A stretch of 64,000 nucleotides of DNA, taken from positions 77,249 through 141,248 of the forward strand of contig CAIKZD010000017.1 in the NCBI GenBank assembly GCA_903831805.1, given 5' to 3'. Both the position numbers and the translations under genes were made by a program. Below, in pieces: positions 1,982-63,597 of the stretch. This stretch comes from an uncultured bacterium (lineage in GTDB: Bacteria; Patescibacteriota; Minisyncoccia; Moranbacterales; UBA2206). The notes below the pieces were generated by a model. The model was not told where the DNA came from. It searched no databases and saw only the letters and a program-made list of their open reading frames with translations. Positions within the stretch are counted from its first letter, which is position 1. Each line of letters begins with the position of its first letter.

Positions 1982-3573
1982 ACCCCATCATTGCCACGTT
2001 GATCCAACTGATTTTTGTTCTGCTCGTTGCGCCATATGCTGCGGGTTTGGTGAAATTTTTGAAAGCCCGCTTACAAGGTCGGGACGGCGCGTCACCTTTT
2101 TTATTCTACGTGATGCTTTTCACCTTGCTGCGAAAAGAAATGGTGATCTCGGAAACCGCTTCGTGGATTTTTCGCGCGGTGCCGTTTGTGGTTTTTGGCA
2201 GTACGGTTTTTTTGGCGGCTATCTTGCCGCTTATCTTTACGGGAGCATATCTTGCACCCCTCAGTGATTTTTTGGTGGTGGCGGGCGTGTTGGCTGTGGG
2301 GTCAATATTTTTAGTCTTGGGCGGCCTGGATACTGGCAGCGCTTTTGGCGGGATGGGGTCGAGCCGAGAAATGACCATTGCCACTCTCCTCGAGCCGGTT
2401 ATAGTTATGGTTTTTGCCACTATCAGCTTTGCCACTAAGCAAGCTACCCTGGATGGCATGCTTCGCGTGCAAACCGGTTTTCATCCTTACCTGATTTTGA
2501 CAATCGCGGCGTTAATCCTAGTGGCCTTGGCGGAAAACGCGCGCTATCCGGTGGATAATCCCGCGACGCACTTGGAATTAACGATGGTGCATGAAGCCAT
2601 GATCTTGGAATACAGCGGGAAATATTTAGCTCTTCTGGAATATGCGGCAGCTATAAAATTAGCGGTCTTTTCTTTGCTGATTGCTAATTTTATTTTTCCA
2701 GCGTCACTCATTGGGGCGCCAGCCTTGGGCGGCGGCGCAATAGCTGCCGGATTATTTTGGAGTACGATAAAAATCATAGCGGTCATGATGGCTTTGGCGG
2801 CTTTGGAATCAGTTTTGACCAAGATGCGCTTTTATCGCATGTCGGAATATTTTTCTATTGCATATGTCGTGGCATTTCTCGGAATGATTACGGTTCTGCT
2901 CGCGACCTTTACGGAAGTCTCTTTGCAATATCACACTTTGTTTTCTCTTTTAACTGTCGTATGCGTGGTGTTGCTTTTCGGCAAAGTGCGCCTGAAAGCT
3001 ATTTTGCGCTACTACGCTGTTTCTTCTTTGGCCATCGCCGCTCTGGCTTGGAGTCTGGTGTCACTCGCTCCGGCCGAAGAAAAAATGCATCTGTGGTTAT
3101 TTGCGATTTTCACCATCCTTACTAAAACTTTCGCCGTGCCTTATGTGATCAATCGGTCCAGCCACGCTAAAAAAAGTCTCACTAACTTATCATCATTCCT
3201 CCGTCCAGGGAAAAGTTATTTCCTGGCAGTGGCGCTTCTAGTGGTGACTTATTTCGTCTTAAGACACATCTCGATCACCGGTCTCATCAGATGGAATTCA
3301 TTGCTGTACGCTTCCATAACCCTCATTGTTTTAGGTATTGCGATGATGATTATTAAGAAAAATATATTTTCTCAGATCGTGGGACTTTTGATTATTGAAA
3401 ATGGAATTGCGGTTTTCGTGCTGGCCACCATTGGCTCCCTCCCTATTGTTATTGAGTTTGGAATTTTTGCTGTGACCGTCGTGACTGCCTATATTCTGGC
3501 TATCCTGAGTGCCCGCATTGCGGAGCTTTGCGGCAGTGCGGACACGGACGATTTGCGCGGACTAACTGAATAA
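1978..3573 (+). CDS. HycD/HyfC (NuoH-like) membrane subunit with ~200-aa C-terminal multi-TM extension (possibly HyfE-like)
   Basis: ATGA overlap with upstream stop gives MNPIIATLIQ... start; ENARYPVDNPATHLELTMVHEAMILEYSGKYLALLEYAAAIKL matches the NuoH/HycD loop motif; the track ORF from 1837 is an upstream over-extension. Confidence 0.75.
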   Translation: MNPIIATLIQLIFVLLVAPYAAGLVKFLKARLQGRDGASPFLFYVMLFTLLRKEMVISETASWIFRAVPFVVFGSTVFLAAILPLIFTGAYLAPLSDFLVVAGVLAVGSIFLVLGGLDTGSAFGGMGSSREMTIATLLEPVIVMVFATISFATKQATLDGMLRVQTGFHPYLILTIAALILVALAENARYPVDNPATHLELTMVHEAMILEYSGKYLALLEYAAAIKLAVFSLLIANFIFPASLIGAPALGGGAIAAGLFWSTIKIIAVMMALAALESVLTKMRFYRMSEYFSIAYVVAFLGMITVLLATFTEVSLQYHTLFSLLTVVCVVLLFGKVRLKAILRYYAVSSLAIAALAWSLVSLAPAEEKMHLWLFAIFTILTKTFAVPYVINRSSHAKKSLTNLSSFLRPGKSYFLAVALLVVTYFVLRHISITGLIRWNSLLYASITLIVLGIAMMIIKKNIFSQIVGLLIIENGIAVFVLATIGSLPIVIEFGIFAVTVVTAYILAILSARIAELCGSADTDDLRGLTE

Positions 3574-3641
3574 TTTATTTTAAGTTTAGGACTTAAACAT
3601 TTTGCCGACTGCAAATGCGTAAGTCTTATAGCTAATTTTTT

Positions 3642-5147
3642 ATGAATCTCTTTTTCTTAAGCCTTCCATTCCTAGTCGCTTTTCTTTCTGCGGTCGTCGC
3701 CAAGACGGAAAAAGTAGCACGGAGAAGTAGCCTAGTCTTTTCGGTGATTGGCGGGCTGGCCTCAATTTTTTTCGCTTGGCCGTATCTCTTTAATCCCCAA
3801 AGCCAATTGCTGGGGACGTGGTTCCGGATGGACAGTTTTTCGGCTTTGATGGTTCTGCTCATCGCGTGCATATATATTTTTGCCTTGATCGTGAGCGTGC
3901 GCTACATCGGACATGAGTATGGCGAAAAAATTATTACTTTTTCCCAATACAAAATGTATTTTGCACTCTTCCAGCTGTTCGTGCTTTGCATGCTGGTGGT
4001 TGTTTTGACCAATAATGTACTGTTACTCTGGCTGGCACTGGAAGGCACGACGCTGTCGTCCACTTTTCTGGTGGGATTGTATCGTAAAAAAACCAGTATG
4101 GAGGCGGCTTGGAAATATATGATTATCTGTTCTACGGGCATCAGTCTTGGGCTTTTGGGTATTTTGCTTTTAAGTTACGGAGCCCACGTCGGTGGCGTAG
4201 CGGAAGGCAATATTTTTCTTTTGAATAAATTGGCGGAAAGTGCGCATCTCATACCGATAAATATTATCAAATTGGCTTTCATCTTTATCTTTATTGGGTT
4301 TGGCACTAAAATCGGCTTGGCGCCGATGCACACCTGGCTGCCGGACGCGCACAGCAAAGCGCCATCACCCATCTCGGCCATTTTTTCTGCCGTACTTTTG
4401 ACGGTGGCGCTTTATGCCGTTTTGCGTTTCAAATTTATTGCTGACAATGCTTTTTTGAGTTCGGTTTGGACGAATCATTTATTTTTGATTTTTGGCTTTC
4501 TTTCCATCATGCTTGCGGCGCTTATGATGCTTATTCAAACCAATTATAAAAGGATGTTGGCCTATTCGAGCATTGAACATATGGGCATCATCATTTTTTC
4601 TGTTGGACTCTCGCCGCTTGGTGCGGTGGCTGCCCTCATGCATATACTGGGACATACTTTTGCTAAGTCGATGTTATTCTTCGGAGCAGGAGAAATTTTG
4701 ATTCGTTGGAAAACTACCAAGATCGCCAAGATAAAAAATATGTTCGAAGAGGCGAGATATACCAGTATACTCTTTCTTTTGGGCATCGTTATGATTGTGG
4801 CTATCCCGCCGTCCGCTTTGTTCGTGAGTGAATATGCCATGTTCGCTCAAGTGATTGTTTTGCATCCGGTGGTGTCCATTCTTTTGTTCATCGCCTTGGG
4901 CATCATCGCTTACGCTATGCTTTCACTCAGCGTGAAAATGATTTTTGCGAAGGAGCCCGCCTCCGCTACGAGTTCTGGCGCGGCGAAGCCCGCCCTCGCT
5001 GAAGCTACGGTGGGCAAGGAAAAATGGAATGTTACGCACACCATCATGAGCGTGGAATTGTGCATGGTAGTGTTTTTGGCTTGGTGGCTTACGACGCCGG
5101 GATCGATGGGTGTTCTCGGCAATATAACGAAAACTTTTATTTATTAA
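3642..5147 (+). CDS. NuoM/NuoN/HyfF-like antiporter-type membrane subunit
   Basis: 501 aa; WLPDAHSKAPSPISAIFSAVLLTVALYAVLRF motif; polytopic. Confidence 0.8.
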   Translation: MNLFFLSLPFLVAFLSAVVAKTEKVARRSSLVFSVIGGLASIFFAWPYLFNPQSQLLGTWFRMDSFSALMVLLIACIYIFALIVSVRYIGHEYGEKIITFSQYKMYFALFQLFVLCMLVVVLTNNVLLLWLALEGTTLSSTFLVGLYRKKTSMEAAWKYMIICSTGISLGLLGILLLSYGAHVGGVAEGNIFLLNKLAESAHLIPINIIKLAFIFIFIGFGTKIGLAPMHTWLPDAHSKAPSPISAIFSAVLLTVALYAVLRFKFIADNAFLSSVWTNHLFLIFGFLSIMLAALMMLIQTNYKRMLAYSSIEHMGIIIFSVGLSPLGAVAALMHILGHTFAKSMLFFGAGEILIRWKTTKIAKIKNMFEEARYTSILFLLGIVMIVAIPPSALFVSEYAMFAQVIVLHPVVSILLFIALGIIAYAMLSLSVKMIFAKEPASATSSGAAKPALAEATVGKEKWNVTHTIMSVELCMVVFLAWWLTTPGSMGVLGNITKTFIY

Positions 5148-5168
5148 AAAAATAGCAATTAACAGCAT

Positions 5169-6731
5169 ATGACTATCCAAGAAATTATTGCAGAATTTAA
5201 GGAAAAAATAACTATCGTCAGTGAGAAAAGCGATTTGATAGAAGCTAAAGTTTCTCGGGACGACTTAGCTGAGGTGGCGACAGCTCTGTTTCATGATCAT
5301 AAATTACCATTGTCCCTGATGTTCGCCACGGACAACCGTACGGAAGACGGTAGTTTTGGAGTGCATACTGTTTTCAGTGTTCCCGCCGAAAAGAAGTGGC
5401 TGAAAATTTCGGTGGAAGTTCCGGCTTCTGATCCGCAATATCCCGCGCTCACCAGAACTATTATGGCGGCGCATTGGTATGAAAGATATTTGCGCGACAT
5501 GTTCGGCATCACGCCCGTTGGCCATCCTGATTTGCGCCGTTTGGTGCAGCATGAAAATATGCCAGAAGGCATTCATCCATTGTGCAAGGATTTCTTGTGG
5601 AACACTAAGTTGGAAAAAGCTAATGTGCCGTATCCGATGCATCATGTGACTGGTGACGGGATTTTTGAAATTCCGGTCGGACCGATCCATGCCGGTATCA
5701 TTGAGCCGGGCCATTTTCGTTTCAATGTGGCCGGCGAAAGAATTTTAACCTTGGAAGGCAAACTATTTTTTACGCATAAAGGCGTGGAAAAATTGTTGGA
5801 AGGCAAGAATATCATGGAGGCACTGCCGTTCATTGAAAGGATTTCTGGTGACGCAGCGGCTTCGCACGCTTTAGCGTACTGCGAAGCGGTGGAGAAAATC
5901 GCCGGTTGCGCGGTCCCGCGGCGGGCGCAAATGTTGCGCGCAATTCTCACCGAATGCGAAAGAATCACTATGCACATTCATGACCTGGCCAATATCGGTG
6001 GCATGGGCACGGGGTATAGTTTTATCGCAGCTAATGGTTTTCGTATCAAGGAAAGAATGATGCGTCTTTCGCAAGAGATTTGCGGCAATCGTTTTTGGCG
6101 CGGCCTGATTGTCCCGGGCGGGATAAAAAAAGATATCACTGATGAGGATTTGAAAAAAATATTAAACGTATCTCAAGCGGCCTGGAAAGAAATGGAAAAA
6201 ATTACCATCATCGCGCTCGACAGCGAAGGCTTTTTGGATCGCTTGCAATATACGGGCGAACTGCCAAAAGAGGCGGCCGAAGCCTTTGGGGCGGTCGGTC
6301 CGGCGGCGCGCGCGTCCAAGGTCAGTCGCGATGTGCGGCGCGATCATCCTTATGCCTCTTACGCCGAATTTCCGATCAAAGTCATCACTAAAAAAAGTCT
6401 GGATGTTTTTGCGCGTTATCGTATGCGGATTAAAGAGATTGAACAATCACTGGTTCTGATGCAAACTTTAGTGGAAAAAATGCCAGCTGGAGATATTATG
6501 GAAAAAGTGGCAGTGCGCGATGGCTTTGCACTTGGCGCCGTGGAATCATGGCGCGGAGAAATCATCTGTGCGCTGCAAATTAAAAACGGCGTGATTGAAA
6601 GATGTGTGCCGCGTGATCCCTCTTTTTGCAACTGGGCCCTCTTCGGCATTATGGGTCCCGGCAACATCGTGCCGGATTTCCCACTCATCAACAAAAGTTT
6701 GAATCTGTCCTATTCCGGGACGGACTTGTAA
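5169..6731 (+). CDS. NuoC-NuoD / HycE-like fused catalytic-module subunit lacking NiFe-binding cysteines
   Basis: N-terminal 30-kDa (NuoC)-like domain, then a 49-kDa/large-subunit-like domain (PVGPIHAGIIEPGHFRF). Expected L1 motif ERxCGxC reads ERISGDAAASH; C-terminal DPCxxC reads RDPSFCNW. Confidence 0.75.
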   Translation: MTIQEIIAEFKEKITIVSEKSDLIEAKVSRDDLAEVATALFHDHKLPLSLMFATDNRTEDGSFGVHTVFSVPAEKKWLKISVEVPASDPQYPALTRTIMAAHWYERYLRDMFGITPVGHPDLRRLVQHENMPEGIHPLCKDFLWNTKLEKANVPYPMHHVTGDGIFEIPVGPIHAGIIEPGHFRFNVAGERILTLEGKLFFTHKGVEKLLEGKNIMEALPFIERISGDAAASHALAYCEAVEKIAGCAVPRRAQMLRAILTECERITMHIHDLANIGGMGTGYSFIAANGFRIKERMMRLSQEICGNRFWRGLIVPGGIKKDITDEDLKKILNVSQAAWKEMEKITIIALDSEGFLDRLQYTGELPKEAAEAFGAVGPAARASKVSRDVRRDHPYASYAEFPIKVITKKSLDVFARYRMRIKEIEQSLVLMQTLVEKMPAGDIMEKVAVRDGFALGAVESWRGEIICALQIKNGVIERCVPRDPSFCNWALFGIMGPGNIVPDFPLINKSLNLSYSGTDL

Positions 6732-6926: not shown

Positions 6927-9509
6927 ATGGAAGAAAACGCTAAATACAACCCTAATGAAATCGAGGCCAAATGGCAGAAATTTTGGCTTGAAAAAGGGAT
7001 TTCTCTGATAGATAAGGATGATGTGACCAAAGAGAAATTCTATATTTTGGATATGTTTCCCTATCCGTCGGGGGCGGGGTTGCATATGGGGCACACTGAG
7101 AGCTATACGGCTAGTGATGCGGTTTATCGCTATAAGAAACTGCAGGGGTTCAATGTGCTGCATCCACAAGGTTTTGACGCTTTTGGGTTGCCAGCGGAAA
7201 ATTACGCCATCAAGACTGGCATTTCGCCGGTGGAAACGACTAAAATAAATATAATCAATTATATCCGGCAGATGCAGTCTTTGGGTTTCGCCTATGATTT
7301 TTCTGAGCAGGCAGTGACGTGCGATCCGGAATATTATAAGTGGACGCAATGGATCTTTGGAGAATTTTTCAAGCAGGGGTTGGTGTACAAAAAAACATCC
7401 AAGACTAATTGGTGTCCTTCGTGTCAAACGGTGATTGCCAATGAACAGGTAGTGGATGGCAAATGCGAAAGATGCGGGACAGAAATCGAACAAAAAGAAG
7501 TGCCGAGTTGGTTTTTTAAAATTACGGATTTTGCCGAAGAACTTATTAATGGTTTGGACAATGTTGATTGGCCTGAATATACCAAGAAGAATCAGAAAAA
7601 TTGGATAGGGAAAAGTGAAGGAGTGACGGTGAAGTTTCAAATTATGCCCTCTCCTGTCCGGAGTACCGGACATCCTCTCCCGAGTACAGGAGAGGATGAA
7701 TGTATTGAAGTTTTTACGACTCGGGTGGATACGATTTTCGGTTGCACCTATGTCGTTCTGGCGCCGGAGAATGAATTGGTTTCTGTGTTGAAGGAACAAT
7801 GCGAGAATAAGGATGAAATAGAAAAATATATCGAGCAGGCGAAAAACAAGACTGAACTGAATCGGATGGAGGCCAAGGAAAAAACCGGCGTGGAGCTGAA
7901 AGGCGTGCGAGCCATCAATCCGTTCAACGATGAAAACGTCCCTGTTTATATTGCGGACTATGTCTTAGCAAGCTATGGCACCGGTGCAGTGATGGCCGTG
8001 CCGGTGCATGACGAACGGGATTGGGAGTTTGCGGATAACCACAATTTGCCGAAAAAAGGCGTTATTATTCCTAGACCTATAAAATCAGGCTTACTCATCG
8101 GTGATGAAATTGATAATGTCGATGAGTCGTATGAACATTTTGACAATTACGCAAATAAAAAAAAGGATAATATTAGAAAAGGCATAGAAATTTTTGTTGA
8201 AGACGGGACCGTAATTGATTCCGGAGAGTTTAATAAATTAAATTCTGACGAGGCGCGGGAAAAAATGGCGGTGTGGCTGGAAGAAAAAAAGCTGGGCAAG
8301 AAAATCGTGAATTATCGTTTGCGGGATTGGTCTATTTCACGGCAACGTTATTGGGGCTGTCCGATCCCGATTGTCTATTCGCCGGACGGTGAAGCGCATC
8401 TGGTGCCGGAAGAGCATCTGCCATGGAAACTGCCAATGGACGTGGACTTTGTGCCGACTGGTATTTCACCTTTGGCCAAATCCGCGGAACTGAAAAAACG
8501 TACGGAAGAAATTTTTGGAGCGGGTTGGACTGCGGAATATGACACGATGGACACCTTTGTCGATTCATCGTGGTATTTTTTGCGTTATCCTGATGCGCAT
8601 AATGACCAAGAATTCTGTTCCAAAGAGAGGCTGAAAAAATGGTTGCCGGTAGACGTGTATATCGGCGGCGCGGAACACACCTACATGCATCTTTTGTTTG
8701 CTAGATTTTTCGTGAAAGCCATGCATCGGATCGGCATTCTTGATTTTGACGAACCGTTTTTGAAGTTGCGGCATCAGGGGATGGTATTGGATAAGGAAGG
8801 AAAAAAGATGTCAAAGTCCAAGGGGAACGTTATCAACCCGGATGATATGGTGGCAAAATTTGGGGCAGACAGTGTGCGGACCTATATGCTTTTTGCGACG
8901 CCACTGGAAGATGCGGTGATGTGGAATGAGAATAATATTGTCGGAGTGAGGAGGTTTTTGGAGAAAGTTTGGAAATTGCAATACAAAATTACAAATTACA
9001 AATTACAAATTACAAATAAAATCCAAAATCCAAATGATCAAAATAAAAAACTAGTTTCGCTCATTAATAAAACGATCAAAAAAGTCGGGGAGGACATTGA
9101 AAATTTCCGGTTCAATACGGCAGTGAGTCAGTTGATGATACTCGTGAATGAGATGGAAAAACAGACAGAAATAGTCGCTGCTGATTATGAAAAATTACTG
9201 CTTTTGCTAGCGTCTTTCGCGCCGCATATTGCGGAGGAAATTTTCCAAAAAGTTTTGGGTCACGAGGAATCAATATTTTTGCAGAAGTGGCCAGAGTTTG
9301 AGGAAGCGTTGACCAAAGACGAAACAATAAATCTAGTATTGCAAGTGAATGGCAAGGTGCGTGATATGGTATCAGTAGGCGCGGACATTGCAGAAGAGGA
9401 GGCGAAAAAAATCGCGCTGGTCAGTGAGAAAATCCAAAAGCATATCGGCGGCAAAGAGGTCAAGAAAATTATTTTTGTTCCAGGTAAATTGGTTAATATT
9501 GTAATCTAA
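6927..9509 (+). CDS. leuS: Leucyl-tRNA synthetase
   Basis: 860 aa; HMGH (HIGH) and KMSKS motifs; N-terminus YNPNEIEAKWQKFW; CP1 editing domain TTRVDTIFG; contains two atypical in-frame insertions (see findings). Confidence 0.97.
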   Translation: MEENAKYNPNEIEAKWQKFWLEKGISLIDKDDVTKEKFYILDMFPYPSGAGLHMGHTESYTASDAVYRYKKLQGFNVLHPQGFDAFGLPAENYAIKTGISPVETTKINIINYIRQMQSLGFAYDFSEQAVTCDPEYYKWTQWIFGEFFKQGLVYKKTSKTNWCPSCQTVIANEQVVDGKCERCGTEIEQKEVPSWFFKITDFAEELINGLDNVDWPEYTKKNQKNWIGKSEGVTVKFQIMPSPVRSTGHPLPSTGEDECIEVFTTRVDTIFGCTYVVLAPENELVSVLKEQCENKDEIEKYIEQAKNKTELNRMEAKEKTGVELKGVRAINPFNDENVPVYIADYVLASYGTGAVMAVPVHDERDWEFADNHNLPKKGVIIPRPIKSGLLIGDEIDNVDESYEHFDNYANKKKDNIRKGIEIFVEDGTVIDSGEFNKLNSDEAREKMAVWLEEKKLGKKIVNYRLRDWSISRQRYWGCPIPIVYSPDGEAHLVPEEHLPWKLPMDVDFVPTGISPLAKSAELKKRTEEIFGAGWTAEYDTMDTFVDSSWYFLRYPDAHNDQEFCSKERLKKWLPVDVYIGGAEHTYMHLLFARFFVKAMHRIGILDFDEPFLKLRHQGMVLDKEGKKMSKSKGNVINPDDMVAKFGADSVRTYMLFATPLEDAVMWNENNIVGVRRFLEKVWKLQYKITNYKLQITNKIQNPNDQNKKLVSLINKTIKKVGEDIENFRFNTAVSQLMILVNEMEKQTEIVAADYEKLLLLLASFAPHIAEEIFQKVLGHEESIFLQKWPEFEEALTKDETINLVLQVNGKVRDMVSVGADIAEEEAKKIALVSEKIQKHIGGKEVKKIIFVPGKLVNIVI
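8983..9050. repeat. In-frame (CAAATTA)n-containing ~65-nt element within leuS
   Basis: acaaaattacaaattacaaattacaaattacaaataaaatccaaaatccaaatgatcaaaataaaaaa; encodes KITNYKLQITNKIQNPNDQNKK. Confidence 0.8.
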
Positions 9510-43905: not shown

Positions 43906-45861
43906 ATGTCTGAAATCAATTTTTTCGCCAAAACTAATTTTAGGAACAAGGAGGTGGTTTTTGGCATCAAGGAAGATGACCGCCGCCGCCATATGTATGT
44001 TATTGGAAAAACCGGAATGGGTAAATCCAATATGTTGGAAAATATGGCTATCCAAGACATTCGGAATGGCAAAGGCGTTTGTGTGGTCGATCCGCACGGC
44101 GAATTTGCCGAAAAAATGGTGCGGGCCATCCCGGCTAATCGTATCAATGACCTGGTTTATTTCAATCCGGCGGACAAAGAATTTCCGATTGCCTTTAATA
44201 TCTTGGAGTCTGTTGAGGAGGATAAAAAAAACTTGGTGGCCAGTGGTATGATGGGGGTGTTCAAAAAAATCTGGCCGGATGTGTGGAGTCCGCGAATGGA
44301 ATATATTCTAAATAATACAATTCTCGCCCTTTTGGATTACCCCGGTTCCACTATGCTCGGCGTGAACCGCATGATGAGTGATAAGGATTTCCGGAAGCGT
44401 GTTTATCCGAAAATTAAAGATCCGGTGGTAAAATCTTTTTGGATTAATGAATTTGATCAATGGGATGATAAGTTCAGAAAAGAGGCGGTGGCGGCTATCC
44501 AGAATAAAGTTGGACAATTCTTGTCGTCTTTCGTTATTCGCCACATCGTCGGTCAACCGAAATCTACGATCGATATGCGGGAAATTATGGATAACGGTAA
44601 GATTTTGATTGTGAACCTTTCCAAAGGACGAATCGGCGAAGATGCGATGCGGCTTTTGGGTGGTATGGTGGTCACCAAGATCCAGTTGGCGGCCATGGGA
44701 CGGGTGGACATTCCAGAAGAAGAAAGAAAAGATTTCTATCTGTATGTCGATGAATTCCAAAATTTTGCCACGGAAGCTTTTGCTAACATTTTGTCTGAGG
44801 CGAGAAAATATCGCTTGAGCCTGATCTTGGCCCATCAATATATAAACCAATTGATTTTTGACGGCAACGCGACGGTGCGAGACGCTATCTTTGGCAATGT
44901 CGGCACGATTGTTTCTTTTCGGGTGGGGGCGGAAGATGCGGAAGCGCTGGAAAAAGAATTTGATCCGGTTTTTCTGATGAATGACATCGTGAATCTTTCC
45001 AAATACCGAATATATTTGAAATTAATGATTGATGGTATCGCCGGTGACGCTTTTTCCGCTACGACTTTGCCGCCGGCCGACCTGGCCGATACAATCGGTA
45101 ATGAAGAAAATGCCATCAAAGTTTCGCGCGAGCGATATGGCCGATCGCGCGCGGAAATTGAAGAAAAAATTGCTCGCTGGAGCGGCATGTTTGAGTTTGA
45201 TGAACCCAAGAAAACAGCCCCGGACGCGGTGAAAAATTATCCGGGAGCTTCCAGGATTACGCTTAAACCGACCGGGCCAGCTGTCAGAAAAGATTTTAGC
45301 CCGGCTATGCCGAAGCCAGTGGCGCCTATGTCAGCGCCGCTGATAAGCAAAAATATTTCGAGTAATAGCTATGACCCGGCTCGCGCAGTCAAAGAAAATT
45401 TATCCAAGCCGGAACTTCCGCCGAAAGCTGCTGTCGCAAAAACTGAAGTTGCTGCGGTTGCCCCACCGGCCGAGCGGCAAATGTTTGATACGGTTTGTGA
45501 TAGCTGTGAAGAAAAAATTCAAGTGCCTTTCGCCCCTGACCCCAATCGTCCGACTTTTTGTCGGGAATGCTTGAAAGAATATCAAAGAGCTAGAGCCAGA
45601 TCGCAGCGAGAAAAAACTGAACAGTCGCCAGCCCCAAGCGGAGGTGTGCCGGACCACGCGCGGCCTACTCAGGAAAAACAAATAAGCTCGCCCGAACAAG
45701 TGGATGATTATGAGCCTGTAGCCATGTCGTCAGATGAAAAACCGATGCGGCTGACCCAGATGGTGCATATGGCACCGAAAAAATTTCAAAGTACGCGGAG
45801 AAAACCGGAAATTGACCGGGCGGGCGTACGAGACTTGATAAATAAAACAAAAAATAACTGA
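43906..45861 (+). CDS. HerA/VirB4/VirD4-like (DUF87/AAA_10-type) P-loop ATPase with C-terminal CxxC-x19-CxxC zinc ribbon
   Basis: Walker A IGKTGMGKSN, VDPHGE, Walker B FYLYVDEFQNF, LILAHQY; disordered C-terminal tail bearing CDSCEEKIQVPFAPDPNRPTFCRECL. Confidence 0.7.
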   Translation: MSEINFFAKTNFRNKEVVFGIKEDDRRRHMYVIGKTGMGKSNMLENMAIQDIRNGKGVCVVDPHGEFAEKMVRAIPANRINDLVYFNPADKEFPIAFNILESVEEDKKNLVASGMMGVFKKIWPDVWSPRMEYILNNTILALLDYPGSTMLGVNRMMSDKDFRKRVYPKIKDPVVKSFWINEFDQWDDKFRKEAVAAIQNKVGQFLSSFVIRHIVGQPKSTIDMREIMDNGKILIVNLSKGRIGEDAMRLLGGMVVTKIQLAAMGRVDIPEEERKDFYLYVDEFQNFATEAFANILSEARKYRLSLILAHQYINQLIFDGNATVRDAIFGNVGTIVSFRVGAEDAEALEKEFDPVFLMNDIVNLSKYRIYLKLMIDGIAGDAFSATTLPPADLADTIGNEENAIKVSRERYGRSRAEIEEKIARWSGMFEFDEPKKTAPDAVKNYPGASRITLKPTGPAVRKDFSPAMPKPVAPMSAPLISKNISSNSYDPARAVKENLSKPELPPKAAVAKTEVAAVAPPAERQMFDTVCDSCEEKIQVPFAPDPNRPTFCRECLKEYQRARARSQREKTEQSPAPSGGVPDHARPTQEKQISSPEQVDDYEPVAMSSDEKPMRLTQMVHMAPKKFQSTRRKPEIDRAGVRDLINKTKNN

Positions 45862-46115: not shown

Positions 46116-47261
46116 TTGGAATTTATGAATTCAAAAAAGCCAAAAATTCTAATTGGAATGAGTGGCGGGGTGGATTCTTCTTCTGCGGCCGCCCTGCTCA
46201 AAAACCAAGACTTCCAAGTGAAAGGTCTTTTTTTGAGGCTGTATGGCGAGGAAGAAAAAACGTTGAAAAATATCCAGGATGTGGAAAAAGTCTGCCAAAA
46301 ATTGGACATACCGCTGCAGATCAAAGATGTCAGGCCAAGATTCAAAAAAGAAGTCATGGGCTATTTTTTGGAGGAATATGCATCTGGGCGCACGCCCAAT
46401 CCGTGTGTTTTTTGCAATGAAAATTTTAAGTTTAAAATATTATTAGAAGAAGCGAAAAAGGCGGGAATAGATTATGTGGCGACGGGTCACTACGCGAGAA
46501 TAACCAAAATACAAGAAACGATAAACAAGCAAATTACAAATTACAAATTACAAATTACAAATAAATTTCAAAATCAAAATGTCAAATTAAAGACGGTCTT
46601 CAGATTAAGAACTGCTAAAGATAAAAATAAAGATCAGTCATATTTCCTGTACAGATTGGGACAAAAGGAATTAGCTAGGATTATTTTCCCATTGGGAGAA
46701 TATGAGAAAACCCAAGTGCGGGCGTTGGCGAAAACGTTCGGTCTTGCGGTGAGTGAAAAAAAAGAATCACAGGATGTGTGTTTCATGGCGGGCGTGACTT
46801 TGGACGAATTTTTGAAAAAAAATCTGAAATTGAAAAAAGGCAAGATTGTTGATGCTACTGGGAAAATTTTAGGCATCCATCATGGTTTGCCGCTCTATAC
46901 GATTGGACAGCGAAAAGGCATTCATATCGGCGGCACCGGTCCATACTATGTCGTAGCCAAGGATTTGAAAAAAAATATTTTAACAGTTTCCAATGATCTG
47001 CAAAAATTGCCATTATTTTATAAAGTTGCTATTTTGGAAAAGGTGAGTTGGGTCAGCGCTATACCGCCGCGCTTGGCTCGGGTCTTGGCGCGCAGCCGAT
47101 ACCGAAATCCCTTGGTTTATGCTATAATCAAAAAGCATGGAGCAAATAATGCCGAATGCGAAATAGAGTTTGAAAAACCGGAGAAAGCTCTGGCCAGCGG
47201 ACAGTCAGTGGTGTTTTATGCGAAAACCGGAGAGGTGATCGGCGGCGGGGTGATTGCATGA
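46116..47261 (+). CDS. mnmA: tRNA-specific 2-thiouridylase MnmA
   Basis: PP-loop GMSGGVDSS; GHYAR...KDQSYFL block; carries the heptamer-repeat insertion QITNYKLQITNKFQNQN. Confidence 0.9.
   Translation: MEFMNSKKPKILIGMSGGVDSSSAAALLKNQDFQVKGLFLRLYGEEEKTLKNIQDVEKVCQKLDIPLQIKDVRPRFKKEVMGYFLEEYASGRTPNPCVFCNENFKFKILLEEAKKAGIDYVATGHYARITKIQETINKQITNYKLQITNKFQNQNVKLKTVFRLRTAKDKNKDQSYFLYRLGQKELARIIFPLGEYEKTQVRALAKTFGLAVSEKKESQDVCFMAGVTLDEFLKKNLKLKKGKIVDATGKILGIHHGLPLYTIGQRKGIHIGGTGPYYVVAKDLKKNILTVSNDLQKLPLFYKVAILEKVSWVSAIPPRLARVLARSRYRNPLVYAIIKKHGANNAECEIEFEKPEKALASGQSVVFYAKTGEVIGGGVIA
46528..46592. repeat. In-frame (CAAATTA)n-containing ~65-nt element within mnmA
   Basis: caaattacaaattacaaattacaaattacaaataaatttcaaaatcaaaatgtcaaattaaag; near-identical to leuS 8983..9050. 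Confidence 0.8.
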
Positions 47262-55857: not shown

Positions 55858-55926
55858 TTAGCCATTAGCCATTAGCCATTAGCCGTTAGAGCTAAGAGCT
55901 AAGAGCTAAAAGCTAAAAGCTAAAAT
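55858..55926. repeat. Heptamer tandem repeats (AGCCATT)x4 + (AGCTAAG/AGCTAAA)x5 immediately 5' of rpsM
   Basis: ttagccattagccattagccattagccgttagagctaagagctaagagctaaaagctaaaagctaaaat ATG. Confidence 0.85.
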
Positions 55927-57472: not shown

Positions 57473-57538
57473 AGCCGTTAGCCGTTAGCCTTTAGCTCTT
57501 AGGAGCTAACAGCTAATAACTAACAGCTAATAACTAAT
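57473..57538. repeat. Heptamer tandem repeats (AGCCGTT / AGCTAAC-like) immediately 5' of rpoA
   Basis: agccgttagccgttagcctttagctcttaggagctaacagctaataactaacagctaataactaat ATG; related to the block at 55858..55926. Confidence 0.85.
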
Positions 57539-58513
57539 ATGCAAATATCTCTTCCTCAAAAACCAAAATATACCCCGACTGACGAAAAAACGGGCTTATT
57601 TGAAATTGAAGGATGCTATCCGGGCTATGGCACTACTTTGGGTAATGCTATTCGTCGCGTGCTCTTGTCTTCTATGCCTGGAGCGGCCGTCACATCAGTC
57701 AAAATTAAGAATGCCAAACATGAATTCTCAACTTTGCCGAATGTTATGGAAGATATCATTCAGATAATCCTTAATTTGAAACAAGTCCGATTCAGATTGT
57801 TTGATGAAGGACCGGTCAAGGTCAATTTGAAAGTGAAAGGTGAAAAGGTCATTACGGCTGCAATGATCGAATGTCCATCGAACCTGGAAGTGGTGAACTC
57901 TGATGCGCATATTGCGACCATCACCGGAGCCAAAGGCGAGTTGGAAATAGAAATGGAAATTTCGGCCGGTATCGGTTATGTTCCGGTGGAGCAACAAGAG
58001 CGCAAGGAAAAAGAAGTGGGCGTCATCGCTTTGGACGCAATCTATACTCCGGTGCGCCGAGTGAACTATACTATTTCCAATATGCGCGTGGGCAAGAAAA
58101 CCGATTTTGAAAAAATCAGCTTGGAGGTTATGACTGATGGCAGCGTTTCTCCCTTGGATGCTTTTTCTAAGGCCGTAGACATCCTGGTGAAGCAATTTTC
58201 TACATTAGTTGAAATGGAAGCACCGGCGAAAAAGACAAAAGTGACAGAAGTGTCCGCTCCGGAAGTCGTGATCGAAAAAGAAGTGGAAACGGTGGTCGCT
58301 TCCGACCCCAAGAGCGTTGAAATAACCGAACTGAAAAATTTATCCACCCGTACTTTGAATGTTTTGGAAAAAGGCAAGATTCGCAAGGTGGGTGACATCA
58401 TTAAATTGGATGAAGCCGCGCTTATGGAACTGGAAGGCATGGGCGCTAAGGGGGTAAAAGAGATTAGAAAAGCGATCGGTGATTTCGGATTGAATTTGAA
58501 GAAAGCAGAATAA
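57539..58513 (+). CDS. rpoA: DNA-directed RNA polymerase alpha subunit
   Basis: N-terminal dimerisation domain (GYGTTLGNAIRRVLLSS) and C-terminal alphaCTD. Confidence 0.95.
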   Translation: MQISLPQKPKYTPTDEKTGLFEIEGCYPGYGTTLGNAIRRVLLSSMPGAAVTSVKIKNAKHEFSTLPNVMEDIIQIILNLKQVRFRLFDEGPVKVNLKVKGEKVITAAMIECPSNLEVVNSDAHIATITGAKGELEIEMEISAGIGYVPVEQQERKEKEVGVIALDAIYTPVRRVNYTISNMRVGKKTDFEKISLEVMTDGSVSPLDAFSKAVDILVKQFSTLVEMEAPAKKTKVTEVSAPEVVIEKEVETVVASDPKSVEITELKNLSTRTLNVLEKGKIRKVGDIIKLDEAALMELEGMGAKGVKEIRKAIGDFGLNLKKAE

Positions 58514-60044: not shown

Positions 60045-60878
60045 ATGAAAAAAGAGTTGGTATTTTTCGAAAATTTTAAGATTCGCCGCCATTATGATGA
60101 AAAGGCGGAAATTTGGTATTTTTCGGTGGTGGATATTATCGCTGTGCTTTTAGAACAAAAAGATTTTCAGGCTGCTAGAAATTATTGGAAAGTTTTGAAA
60201 AATCGCCTTAAATCTGAGGGTAGCGAAGTGGTTACAGAATGTAACCGGTTGAAAATGAAGGCAGAAGACGGAAAAATGCGTGAAACGGATGCCGCAAACC
60301 CAGAAACAATTTTTCGTCTAATTCAATCTGTGCCCAGTCCTAAAACTGAACCAATCAAATTGTGGTTGGCTAAAGTGGGTTATGAAAGAATCCAAGAAAT
60401 GTCCGATCCGGAAAAATCTTTGGATCGTGCGCGCGAAAATTGGGAGAGACATGGGCACACTAAGAAGTGGATCCAGCAAAGGATGATGGGACAGGAAATT
60501 AGGAATAAGCTGACTGATTATTGGCAAGATAACGGCGTCAAAGAAAAAGAAGAGTTTGCTATTTTGACCAATATCATTCATCAAGAATGGACAGGGCTAA
60601 CCGTCAAAGGACATAAGAAGTTAAAAGGTTTGAAAACACAGAACCTGCGCGACCATATGAGCGATGCGGAGTTGGTTTTCACAGCTCTCGCGGAATTGTC
60701 CACGCGTCAAATTGCCCAAACGTTGGAAGCTAAAGGTATGGGTGAAAATAAGGTGGCTAGCAAGCGTGGCGGGTCAGTCGCTAAGAAGGCAAGAATTGAT
60801 TTGGAATTGAAAACTGGTAAAAAAATAGTTTCGAAGGATAATTTTTTGCAAAAGCGACGTGTTGAGAAATTGAAATGA
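60045..60878 (+). CDS. DinD-like DNA-damage-inducible protein (Bro-N domain family)
   Basis: N-terminal FENFKIRRHYDEKAEIWYFSVVDIIAVLLE...EPIKLWLAKVGYERI resembles Bro-N/DinD; 277 aa. Confidence 0.6.
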   Translation: MKKELVFFENFKIRRHYDEKAEIWYFSVVDIIAVLLEQKDFQAARNYWKVLKNRLKSEGSEVVTECNRLKMKAEDGKMRETDAANPETIFRLIQSVPSPKTEPIKLWLAKVGYERIQEMSDPEKSLDRARENWERHGHTKKWIQQRMMGQEIRNKLTDYWQDNGVKEKEEFAILTNIIHQEWTGLTVKGHKKLKGLKTQNLRDHMSDAELVFTALAELSTRQIAQTLEAKGMGENKVASKRGGSVAKKARIDLELKTGKKIVSKDNFLQKRRVEKLK

Positions 60879-61107
60879 CGCAGCTGTGGATAACTTCCTG
60901 CAAAATAATGTTTCATAAAAAGGAAAAATCGGGTATAATAAAAATAGCGCTTCTGTCATTCCTGCGTAGGCAGGAATCCAGTCACATATCATTAAGTTTC
61001 TACACTAGATTCCCGTATACACGAGAATGACAAATACGCGTAAGACTATTCCTAATAACATAAAGCATAATTTTTTTAAGCCTAACTAAATCTTTGCACT
61101 GCATGCA

Positions 61108-63597
61108 TTGAGCGCTATGCGCTGGTGCCTAAAAGGTGCGGGAAACAACAAAATAAATGAAAAATCTACTCTCTCTCTCTCTCTCTCTCTCTTAACTAAG
61201 AAAGTAAACTTTTTCCACCGAAACTTTTTCCGACTGGCGCTCATCATTTTCTGTGCCGGTTTTTTTGTGTTTGGATTTGGAGGTGAGGCGAAAACTAGTG
61301 TGGGTTCAAATTATTGGAAAACATATTTTTCCGGCCCGGAGCTGGAAGCGGTCAAGAAGAATGCGCAGAAATATACTCTGGCGCAAATCAAAAACAAAAG
61401 CGATCAATGGCACGGTGTCATTTCGGGTTTCAACATTAAAAACGGTTCTGTCACCAATGATGATATTGATAGCGTGGATGCCGGCAAAGTTAAAAATCTG
61501 GGAGATGTCATTGATAAAAGAATTTCTGAAAGTTCAACCCCTCAAGATTTTTCAGCTAGTCATTTGACTGGAACATATGCGGCGCTGAATGGTTCGAATA
61601 TCACGGGTATCACGGCAAGTCAAGTTGGGGCCATTCCATATAACGGCGACGGGTCAAGTCTATTAGGAGTTCAGCGAGTTGCAAATGTAACTGATTTTGG
61701 AGCGACAATGGATAATAATTCAGATGATGATATTGCTGCATTTGAGTCGGCAGCTTCCCATTCTTCAAATATCGTTGTACCTGGCAGTGGCACATATTCA
61801 ATTTCAAAATTTACCATTCCAGCTAATAATATAACAATATCGTGTCCAGAAAGGGCAATAATTAAACTTAAAGACGGTACAGATGATAATCTTATATATG
61901 CGCATCAAAAATCAGGAATTACAATTAATAATTGTGTACTAGATGGAAATCAAGCAAACCAAACTATTTATTCAGGATGGGCGATTTACGTAGAAGGAAG
62001 TTCGAATATTAAGATAGAAAATAATGAGGTGATGAATTCAGCAAATGAAGGTATAAGAGTTGTCGAATCGACTGAATGGTGGATAAGTAATAATTATACG
62101 CATAACAATGTTAATAGTGGCATCGTTTCATTAGGTGGTACCACAAACAATAGTGAACGTGGTCATATTATTGGAAATACGTCAGTCGAGGATGGTAATA
62201 TTGGCAATGGAGCTTCTTGCATTAGTGTTAATAGTCAATATACCGATGTAGCAAATAATACTGTGAAAAATTGTGGCGGATCGGGAGTTGGACATGGATT
62301 TACTATTGGGCACTACAGTGTTACGGGTCCAACATACGATGCATCATTCTCAACTTTTAGTAATAATATTATTGATACAGTAGTGTCTAGCTGTTATTTC
62401 ATAGATTCAGTGCAAGGAATCGAAATTGCAGGAGGTATTTGTAAAAATACAGGAAGTTTAGGACATGCCATTTCGGGATATACAGGTGCGACGTCATTGC
62501 TTCATCATGATATTAAAATTCATGACGTAATAATACAGTCTCCATATATAGGAAAAAATGCGATATCTCTTTATACTGGTTACAACTATTCAATTACTGA
62601 TAATATTATAACTGGTGTGCATAATGGAACTGGAATTGCTTTATATGGTGTTCAAGATTCACTCTTATCAAATAATATTTTGACAGGTAGTACTGGTGGA
62701 GGAAATGGCATAAATTTAGCAGCAACAGGTGGCATAGAATCAACCGGCAATGTGATTTCCGGCAATAAGATAAACACATTCAACCGTTGTCTTGCGAGTG
62801 CAAATTCCTCAACAAATAATAACTGGACAAGTAATGAATGCGTTGGTAGCGCTCAAATAAATAGTCTCGTTGGTACTAATAAACTTTGGGATGTTGGAGG
62901 TATTCCCGGCGGGCAGTCTATTACGGGCAGTACTGTTTCAACAGAGGGATTAATGCTACATTCTAACACTAGCAATAACGGTCTGATATCGTTAGGGTCA
63001 AATATTGTAGCGGATGAGGCTCATACTCGATTTGGAATAGGTATTGCGCCTTCAACAACATTGCAAGCAGTATCAACAACTGAACAACTGCGACTCGGCT
63101 ATGACTCTTCTAATCATGCATCATTTACTGTTGGATCGGCTGGAGCATTGACCATCCAGAATTCCGGCAGTGATATGCAACTTTATACTGGCGGAGTAGG
63201 AATTGTTCGAACGGGCTCTGCTACTGGAGACGCTGGGCAATTAAGAGTAAGAAGTAACGCGAAAGATGTTGCCACTCTGGGTGATACCGGAGGAGTTAAT
63301 GATGGTGGATTATTTTTATATAATAGTGATGGAACGACAAATAATGTCCTTCTTAGATCAAATGGAATGAGTTTTATTAACGGAGGCAACGTCGGCATTG
63401 GCACGACAACGCCTGCCGCCGCACTCGATGTCAACGGTCAAGTGAAAATCCAAAAAAGTTCTTCGCAGCCTTTTGCTTGCGATATGACGCACGATGCAAC
63501 TCTAGCGGTCACTAGCGCGTATCGAACTTGTATTTGCAAAGGTACGTCCACCACCTGGGTCTTCACCACTGACGGCACGACAAGTTGTATTTGGTAA
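61108..63597 (+). CDS. Large secreted/surface protein with right-handed parallel beta-helix (pectate-lyase-fold) repeats
   Basis: 829 aa; signal-anchor FFRLALIIFCAGFFVFGFG; many N.I..N/G.G.G beta-helix repeat units (e.g. NNCVLDGNQAN, SNIKIENNEVMNSANEGIRV, NNYTHNNVNSGIVS); ATG start uncertain. Confidence 0.6.
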   Translation: MSAMRWCLKGAGNNKINEKSTLSLSLSLLTKKVNFFHRNFFRLALIIFCAGFFVFGFGGEAKTSVGSNYWKTYFSGPELEAVKKNAQKYTLAQIKNKSDQWHGVISGFNIKNGSVTNDDIDSVDAGKVKNLGDVIDKRISESSTPQDFSASHLTGTYAALNGSNITGITASQVGAIPYNGDGSSLLGVQRVANVTDFGATMDNNSDDDIAAFESAASHSSNIVVPGSGTYSISKFTIPANNITISCPERAIIKLKDGTDDNLIYAHQKSGITINNCVLDGNQANQTIYSGWAIYVEGSSNIKIENNEVMNSANEGIRVVESTEWWISNNYTHNNVNSGIVSLGGTTNNSERGHIIGNTSVEDGNIGNGASCISVNSQYTDVANNTVKNCGGSGVGHGFTIGHYSVTGPTYDASFSTFSNNIIDTVVSSCYFIDSVQGIEIAGGICKNTGSLGHAISGYTGATSLLHHDIKIHDVIIQSPYIGKNAISLYTGYNYSITDNIITGVHNGTGIALYGVQDSLLSNNILTGSTGGGNGINLAATGGIESTGNVISGNKINTFNRCLASANSSTNNNWTSNECVGSAQINSLVGTNKLWDVGGIPGGQSITGSTVSTEGLMLHSNTSNNGLISLGSNIVADEAHTRFGIGIAPSTTLQAVSTTEQLRLGYDSSNHASFTVGSAGALTIQNSGSDMQLYTGGVGIVRTGSATGDAGQLRVRSNAKDVATLGDTGGVNDGGLFLYNSDGTTNNVLLRSNGMSFINGGNVGIGTTTPAAALDVNGQVKIQKSSSQPFACDMTHDATLAVTSAYRTCICKGTSTTWVFTTDGTTSCIW
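61169..61192. repeat. (CT)12 dinucleotide microsatellite in the 5' coding end of the beta-helix protein gene
   Basis: ctctctctctctctctctctctct read in frame as LSLSLSLL between the ATG and the signal-anchor. Confidence 0.9.

Follow-up and report, generated by a model that had tools for sequence, protein, structure and literature searches.

Repeat-tract phase variation is a textbook property of pathogens adapted to their hosts, Helicobacter, Neisseria, Haemophilus and Campylobacter among them. In the lic1/lic2-type loci of Haemophilus influenzae, tetranucleotide repeats are combined with alternative ATGs in different frames, and translation is strong, weak or absent depending on the repeat number; the opa genes of Neisseria carry CTCTT pentamer repeats in the region that encodes the leader peptide, and hopZ and sabA of Helicobacter pylori carry CT repeats in the signal-peptide coding region, where slipped-strand mispairing occurs. 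The H. pylori gene oipA follows the latter scheme, with slipped-strand mispairing of CT repeats in the signal-peptide coding region, and both states as well as many tract lengths have been described in natural isolates (PMC10564699). The subject of this work is a tract of the same kind, found in a stretch of 64,000 nucleotides of contig CAIKZD010000017.1 from an uncultured, Moranbacteria-like bacterium of the Candidate Phyla Radiation (CPR); this whole stretch is referred to below as the window. Twelve perfect CT units, (CT)12, lie near the 5' end of the gene for a secreted, modular surface protein, and probably constitute a slipped-strand (simple-sequence-repeat) translational phase-variation switch of that protein.

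The locus resembles oipA in its CT unit, in the 5' location of the tract within the signal-peptide coding region of a surface protein, and in the ON/OFF logic of its frameshifts. However, oipA encodes a Hop outer-membrane protein of an animal pathogen, whereas the protein in question is an unrelated secreted beta-helix protein from an environmental CPR lineage. No homology to the Hop/OipA family was detected, the only Pfam and NCBIfam matches being to beta-helix models, and the likeness to oipA is therefore one of mechanism only. A further difference is that two start codons in two frames give three states here; in this respect the locus recalls the lic loci of H. influenzae, where the tract also lies just 3' of two starts in different frames. 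The lic repeats, in contrast, have a tetranucleotide unit and control cytoplasmic enzymes of lipooligosaccharide biosynthesis, and graded expression, which is a feature of lic, would here be a prediction. With the opa genes the locus shares a pyrimidine repeat placed inside the signal peptide, which leaves the mature protein unchanged, and membership in a multigene surface family with variable regions, although opa has a pentamer unit and encodes outer-membrane beta-barrel adhesins of a host-restricted pathogen. Within the CPR, the nearest described case is a hypervariable PTD-repeat surface protein of Gracilibacterium (BD1-5), which has been proposed to function in attachment (PMC6851277). 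It is likewise a repeat-bearing, N-terminally anchored extracellular protein, but its repeats form an in-frame array of 9-mers under amino-acid conservation, it undergoes no frame switching, and it is a different protein.

In a full-text literature search, phase variation through repeat tracts was not found described for CPR, Patescibacteria, Parcubacteria or Saccharibacteria. Mechanisms of this kind are familiar; the apparent novelty is that one occurs in a CPR lineage and is shared by a whole family whose tract types are interchangeable and whose cargo domains are swapped. If this is true, then, according to the literature searched, repeat-tract phase variation would have its first evidence in environmental bacteria that are ultra-small and presumably episymbiotic, and bet-hedging, whether in attaching to hosts or in escaping phages or host defences, would extend beyond animal pathogens. 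A life attached to other microbes is presumed for CPR cells, and the way in which hosts are chosen, held and released is an open question. A switched, secreted family that swaps its central domain between genomes would be an obvious candidate for part of this host-interface machinery, with tract-length distributions in lake and groundwater reads, and the glycan specificity of the beta-helix, as testable targets.

The (CT)12 tract is an uninterrupted 24-nt repeat, while all other dinucleotide runs in the window have at most 4 units (Table 1). In a first-order Markov model of the window, about 3e-12 copies of such a tract are expected per window; therefore, it did not arise by chance. The open reading frame (ORF) that hosts it is open from 61108 to 63597, encoding 829 aa when read from TTG 61108 and 826 aa when read from ATG 61117, the start chosen by public gene callers, whose product, P0001, is 100% identical to the window protein. 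On its 3' side the tract is followed by a basic stretch and then by the hydrophobic core LALIIFCAGFFVFGFGG, which places the repeat in the n-region of a signal peptide or anchor. In relatives, cleavage motifs of the A-x-A type occur just past the segment equivalent to LALIIFCAGFFVFGFGG and before the conserved domain, which suggests that the signal peptide is cleaved. A first-pass annotation of the sequence had described a perfect 24-nt CT tract between the first ATG and the signal-anchor, and both statements agree with what is found.

The arrangement of reading frames is best described through the two candidate start codons. A second ATG, at 61157, lies 12 nt 5' of the tract in a frame other than that of ATG 61117; with the assembled number of units (n=12), it reads MKNLLSLSLSLS and reaches a stop, TAA, at 61193..61195. 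Since the length of a CT unit is not a multiple of 3, in-silico alleles enumerated from n=6 to n=18 fall into three states with a period of 3: where n = 0 mod 3, as in the assembled sequence, the gene body is open from TTG 61108 or ATG 61117; where n = 2 mod 3 (8, 11 or 14), it is in frame with ATG 61157; and where n = 1 mod 3, it has no start in frame. Starting from n=12, the loss of one unit thus shifts the start to ATG 61157, while the gain of one unit leads to a true OFF state. The earlier proposal that gain or loss of a single unit would truncate the protein therefore holds for gain (n=13), which closes all frames; loss instead moves the body onto ATG 61157.

We conclude that ATG 61157 is the ancestral, canonical start, with which the assembled n=12 allele is out of frame. 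This assignment is based on the genome-wide context of starts, on the local leader and on the homology of the start itself. A Shine-Dalgarno-like motif within -16..-6 is present in only 2 of the 40 clear genes of the window, whose starts lie behind A/T-rich leaders with a mean AT content of 0.78 over -15..-1. The leader of ATG 61157 is typical for the genome (AT 0.80, with 73% A), whereas that of ATG 61117 has an AT content of 0.47 over the same interval, a value as low being found in just one of the 40 genes. In addition, ATG 61117 is surrounded by a small GC hairpin in the predicted RNA fold, formed by AGCGC (61111-61115), a TAT loop and GCGCT (61119-61123). In a DNA alignment of 5' ends, ATG 61157 shares its column with the ATG-AAA starts of the relatives L010, L003, L008 and L019, and its leader, AACAACAAAATAAATG, resembles the leader of L004, AACAAAAATAAAATG; no counterpart of ATG 61117 exists in any relative in the same alignment. 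The near-absence of Shine-Dalgarno motifs also bears on the annotation of start codons across the genome.

Judged by its sequence, the window gene is a member of an unnamed, modular 'YWKTYFS...CTW' surface-protein family of Moranbacteria (CPR), defined here, all of whose characteristics it displays. The parts common to the homologs and the window protein are the signal peptide, an N-terminal domain of ~125 aa and a C-terminal domain of ~60 aa. The latter follows the consensus ...PFACD...RTCxCKG...CxW, contains four invariant Cys, is kept in relatives, including those with OFF alleles, and has no Pfam match. The middle region varies from member to member: the window protein has a beta-helix, P0005 an SGNH/GDSL hydrolase, and others have fibre-like GIGT[TS]P repeats. 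The N-terminal domain was used to retrieve 14 related loci, and protein look-ups added 5 more; the samples of origin are lake and groundwater metagenomes. A search with a profile of the N-terminal domain added only three short fragments. A scan of viral contigs with the same domain detected no relatives, and thus gives no evidence of a phage-borne family; a PHROGs search returned a marginal match only.

At the position occupied by (CT)12 in the window, many members of the family carry a long repeat tract of differing length and repeat type, with two repeat chemistries, homopolymer and CT-type, filling the equivalent place in the signal peptide (Table 1). With a long tract defined as a dinucleotide run of at least 7 units, a G/C run of at least 8 or an A/T run of at least 9, nine were counted in 117.5 kb of non-redundant DNA, and eight of these precede a YWKTYF motif by 88-187 nt. 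All four members that have no tract, or a short one only, are in frame. L008 and L019, which come from different assemblies, have no mismatch in 6,456 aligned bp; a single 2-nt gap, equal to one CT unit, is all that separates them. The syntenic ortholog of the window gene is present as an OFF allele with (TC)8 on at least 12 contigs from several samples, with flanks that are 100% identical, and these alleles have been called as proteins of 602-609 aa from internal GTG starts (P0004, P0008 and P0010); on 3 other contigs, an ON protein of 645 aa (P0009, MKNLLLLLLSLSLSNSK...) has a body identical to those three. The OFF loci L008, L019, L010 and L012 have retained unbroken bodies of 456-604 codons that include the conserved C-terminus; therefore, these are switched-off genes and not decaying pseudogenes. 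Truncated bodies were found in two relatives, L006 and L009.

A hypermutable tract at a fixed position, varied repeat types, one-unit differences between otherwise identical genomes, and intact alleles in both ON and OFF states make up the pattern by which repeat-tract contingency loci are usually recognized in genomes. The suggestion of a slipped-strand phase-variation switch in the 5' end of the gene, made in the first-pass annotation, is supported by the tract lengths, frames and one-unit differences of the relatives. That annotation had regarded a conserved LSLSLSLL peptide in orthologs as contrary to its proposal; this peptide is not a conserved coding feature of the orthologs, in which tract types and lengths differ. 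It had also pointed to the ON and OFF frames, and both states do occur among the relatives, the OFF ones with intact bodies.

In the mechanism proposed here, slippage of DNA polymerase during replication would add or remove CT units, 2 nt each, and each change in n would rotate the frame of the gene body relative to the canonical start, ATG 61157. At n = 2 mod 3, as in alleles of 11 or 14 units, ATG 61157 would be the start from which the body is read, presumably with full expression. With n = 0 mod 3, as in the assembled n=12, translation from ATG 61157 would run into the TAA at 61193, leaving only the non-conserved, GC-embedded ATG 61117 or TTG 61108, with probably weak or no expression; with n = 1 mod 3, the body would be out of reach of all starts, and the gene OFF. 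Since the tract would contribute (LS)n to the n-region of the signal peptide, in-frame changes in its length should be neutral for the mature protein, which would consist of the conserved N-terminal domain, a pectate-lyase-type beta-helix and the conserved Cys-rich C-terminal domain. A population would then mix expressers and non-expressers of a glycan-binding or glycan-degrading surface protein, for which host attachment, glycan degradation, or evasion of recognition by phages or hosts, in a form of bet-hedging, are plausible roles. At the level of the family, we lean towards the view that these Moranbacteria genes are run as contingency loci, with interchangeable (CT)n, (TTACTC)n(TC)n and Gn tracts at one signal-peptide position and with swapped cargo (a beta-helix glycan binder or depolymerase, an SGNH hydrolase, or fibre-like repeats), the window gene being a three-state member caught in a non-canonical state.

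Several observations weigh against a switch at this locus, most of them concerning the locus itself. P0001 occurs on 11-12 contigs with an identical 826-aa product throughout, and is alone in its 90% cluster; the two contigs that were read as DNA (L001 and L002) are 100% identical to the window, (CT)12 included. No tract-length polymorphism at this exact locus was found among the 11-12 contigs, which are consensus assemblies, nor are the truncated products expected of OFF alleles (initiated with V or M from GTG 61267, or from GTG 61300) on record. The alleles considered throughout are those of assembly consensus. Even at the syntenic ortholog, the ON allele is known through its protein: the N-terminus of P0009 would need exactly one TC unit fewer, and (TC)7 is back-calculated from it. 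Furthermore, n=12 is in frame with an ATG, and a stable, N-terminally extended protein may be produced. We infer switching at this locus from its relatives. These facts leave some room, if not much, for the tract being a fixed, in-frame, low-complexity coding feature, where ATG 61117 is the true start and LSLSLSLL belongs to a long n-region, perhaps as the relic of a switch rescued by a new start: the same product with n=12 on all of the public contigs, the lack of truncated calls and an ORF that is open from 61108 are all to be expected if this is so. However, an uninterrupted dinucleotide tract of 24 nt is intrinsically unstable, and tracts of the same kind vary in the relatives. Conservation is lacking for ATG 61117, whose leader ranks second-poorest among 41 starts and which is situated in a GC hairpin; the 26 open codons 5' of the tract are close to what chance would give (about 1 in 4, by our own estimate), whereas the conserved ATG 61157 has been kept intact together with its A-rich leader.

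Two other explanations would remove the need for slippage at the DNA level. The pyrimidine tract could act in the RNA, as a CU-rich site for ribosomal protein S1, as a translational enhancer, or as a site of transcriptional slippage or frameshifting, and its location, which coincides with the initiation region of a gene in a genome that lacks Shine-Dalgarno motifs, would suit such a function; correction of out-of-frame states at the RNA level is also conceivable. We consider this very improbable, given that the region matches no known RNA family, that members free of tracts exist and are in frame, and that genomes which are otherwise identical differ in tract length in their DNA. In addition, other members have G9 in place of CT at the same site, and it is therefore mutability, rather than pyrimidine content, that seems to be favoured. 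Still less credible is the idea that the tract lengths are errors of assembly or sequencing, or that the out-of-frame genes are pseudogenes. Repeat tracts are indeed prone to sequencing errors, and the bodies of L006 and L009 are truncated, but at 16-32 nt the tracts are much smaller than a read, each allele recurs in several independent contigs (12 with (TC)8, 3 ON, and 11-12 with (CT)12), and OFF alleles have full-length, intact bodies whose sole lesion is at the tract. A phase-variation switch continues to be the reading that we prefer.

Table 1. Features of the window gene and its surroundings (window coordinates), followed by the tracts found in related loci (coordinates of the locus named; L, loci; P, proteins)
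Feature	Position	Strand	Basis or remark
ORF as in public gene calls, P0001, 826 aa	61117..63597	+	signal peptide, conserved N-domain, beta-helix, Cys-rich C-domain
Alternative in-frame starts, TTG 61108 and ATG 61117	61108..61123	+	long ORF open from these when n = 0 mod 3
Family-conserved start ATG 61157 (MKN...) to TAA	61157..61195	+	frame arithmetic; DNA alignment; A-rich leader
Proposed slippage-prone switch, (CT)12	61169..61192	+	encodes (LS)n, signal-peptide n-region
Hydrophobic core of signal peptide/anchor, LALIIFCAGFFVFGFGG, 17 residues	61234..61284	+	hydropathy maximum; homolog N-termini
Family-conserved N-terminal domain (YWKTYFS...AVKKNAQKYTLAQIKNKS...LTGTYAALNGS), ~125 aa	61285..61656	+	alignment A1, 72% mean column identity
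Right-handed parallel beta-helix, pectate-lyase superfamily	61675..62859	+	PF13229, TIGR03804, AlphaFold2 model, Foldseek; within the family, specific to this gene
Family-conserved C-terminal domain, four Cys (GIGTTTPAAALDVNGQVKIQKSSSQPFACD...RTCICKG...CIW), then stop	63385..63597	+	invariant columns, alignment A2
Conserved partner gene, ~217 aa, N-terminal transmembrane segment	63608..64000 (runs off window end)	+	starts 10 nt past stop
L003, (CT)10			ON relative to canonical start
L008, (CT)9			OFF
L019, (CT)8			OFF
L006 (= L015), (CT)16			OFF
L010, L020-L024, (TTACTC)3(TC)8			OFF
L005, G9	101..109		ON
L007 (= L017), G9	L017 697..705		ON
L012, A8 + G9	2894..2901 and 2919..2927		OFF
L013 / L016, A8	L013 2908..2915		ON
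L004, L014, L018, no tract			ON
L009, short (TC)4			ON

The central domain was analyzed through profiles, structure prediction and structural searches. It matches the Pfam model Beta_helix (PF13229) with an E value of 6.9e-8 and a score of 32.7 bits, against a cutoff of 25.9, and TIGR03804 with a score of 20.2, against 19.45; a match to NosD (PF05048) remains under its cutoff. An exhaustive HMMER scan found only 76 weak relatives, the best at E 7e-11, and those at the top carry PF13229 together with PF12708 (rhamnogalacturonase/epimerase, pectate-lyase-like); an N-terminal cap motif, 'DFGA..D...DD..A', is common to the window domain and the relatives that bear PF12708. AlphaFold2, provided with a 33-sequence alignment, generated a model with a predicted template-modelling score (pTM) of 0.81 and a predicted local distance difference test value (pLDDT) of 78, which rises above 90 over the first ~200 residues, and in this confident model the domain folds as a right-handed beta-solenoid. 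Prediction of the full-length protein from a 7-member family alignment reached a mean pLDDT of 32, and no conclusion was drawn from it.

Foldseek searches with the modelled domain gave 171 matches in the PDB at E<=1e-3, led by AlgE6/AlgE4, PfbA, phi29 gp12 and TSP3, and including an alginate epimerase/lyase, polygalacturonases and RbmB, while 341 matches were obtained among viral models, phage exopolysaccharide depolymerases and tailspikes being among them. With pectate-lyase-superfamily proteins, E values range from 2e-10 to 1e-6 and TM scores reach 0.6-0.7, at a sequence identity of only 8-19%. The window domain thus has in common with the mannuronan C-5 epimerases AlgE4 and AlgE6, the pneumococcal adhesin PfbA, phi29 gp12 and the CBA120 TSP3 tailspikes a right-handed, three-stranded beta-solenoid; in contrast to all of these, it is set between N- and C-terminal modules that are specific to its family. 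A PDB sequence search found nothing, nor did a word-indexed homology search with the central domain. A GHGFTIG motif is located at mid-domain residue 206, beside a low-confidence part of the model (residues 209-237); we take it to be merely reminiscent of the GH28 motif GHGxSIGS. The description of the body as tailspike- or adhesin-like, with a pectate-lyase fold, which had been put forward from the sequence, is borne out by profiles, predicted structure and structural matches. The beta-helix probably acts on a polysaccharide, which it may bind, cut or modify.

The gene that follows the surface-protein gene has relatives beside nearly every member of the family, with tblastn identities of 47-82% in L004, L005, L008, L010-L012 and L016-L023. 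Its product of ~217 aa gives a weak PsbP_2-like match, is more conserved than the middle of the surface protein, and is probably a functional partner of the latter. The closest relative (L010, L020) shares the synteny downstream, with the partner gene followed by those for L31 and S2. On the upstream side, the gene that directly precedes the surface-protein gene in the window (60045..60878) follows rplQ-rplM-rpsI, encodes a Bro-N domain and matches the phage protein family phrog_15286 with an E value of 6.6e-91; in the ortholog locus L010/L020, an NTP_transf_2/HEPN pair is found in the same place, and the upstream neighbourhood is therefore a variable spot. In L018, the 3' end of another family member (430..600, ...PFACDSDHDG...CVWQ) directly precedes the family gene, which indicates that the family occurs in tandem arrays in some genomes. 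In L013/L016, a short reading frame at 2690..2720, ~200 nt 5' of the family gene, consists of ATG-AAA-ATT-TC(AG)6 and then stops immediately (MKISERES*); it may represent either what is left of a 5' module or another locus that bears a tract. The same loci hold internal direct repeats of ~195 nt. Gene callers place the starts of these genes at internal GTG or ATG codons, or at spurious upstream ATGs, so that annotations of the family, and of its signal peptides, are systematically wrong.

In the gap upstream of the gene, the sole match to a sigma-70-like promoter is TTCATA-16-TATAAT at 60912..60939 (+), one site being found where 1.4 are expected in shuffled sequences; this weak candidate, if used, would place both ATGs on the mRNA. 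Overall, the predicted leader fold shows no significant stability (z -1.76). An Rfam search of 60800..61350 revealed no known RNA family, only chance (miRNA-like) hairpin matches far below gathering scores, for which reason a riboswitch or a known leader was rejected. The 230-nt gap 5' of the gene also contains a long, imperfect inverted repeat (60954..61033, TGTCATTCCTGCGTAGGCAGGAATCC ... GATTCCCGTATACACGAGAATGACA), which is single-copy in the window and may be a leader structure or a relic resembling a miniature inverted-repeat transposable element (MITE).

Other features of the window are unrelated to the surface protein. The same perfect heptanucleotide tract, (AAATTAC)x4.6, occurs at 8986..9017 and at 46530..46562, in frame in two housekeeping genes: the former copy lies in a leucyl-tRNA synthetase ORF (6927..9509), between the catalytic and the anticodon-binding domains, and the latter in an ORF for an MnmA-like tRNA thiouridylase (46116..47261). 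Behind both copies stands an A-rich tail of similar sequence, and the two look like a shared insert of ~60-70 nt that encodes an KITNYKLQITNK-like low-complexity peptide; with its 7-nt unit, the tract would cause a frameshift upon slippage. Intergenic heptamer arrays are present at 55858..55925 and 57473..57539, directly 5' of rpsM (ATG 55927) and rpoA (ATG 57539), respectively, and are composed of TTAGCCA x4 then GAGCTAA/AAGCTAA x5, and of AGCCGTT... then AGCTAAC.... Within each array the two halves approximate each other's reverse complement (TTAGC / GCTAA), and long imperfect hairpins are therefore possible in the ribosomal-protein operon. Finally, a cluster for complex-I/Mrp-like membrane subunits is located at 11..6731; its fused 30-kDa/49-kDa subunit also matches the NiFeSe hydrogenase family, and the cluster thus resembles a group-4 membrane-bound hydrogenase. 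Both this hydrogenase-like cluster and a homolog of VirD4/TrwB-type coupling proteins at 43906..45861 are notable for a small genome of the CPR type.

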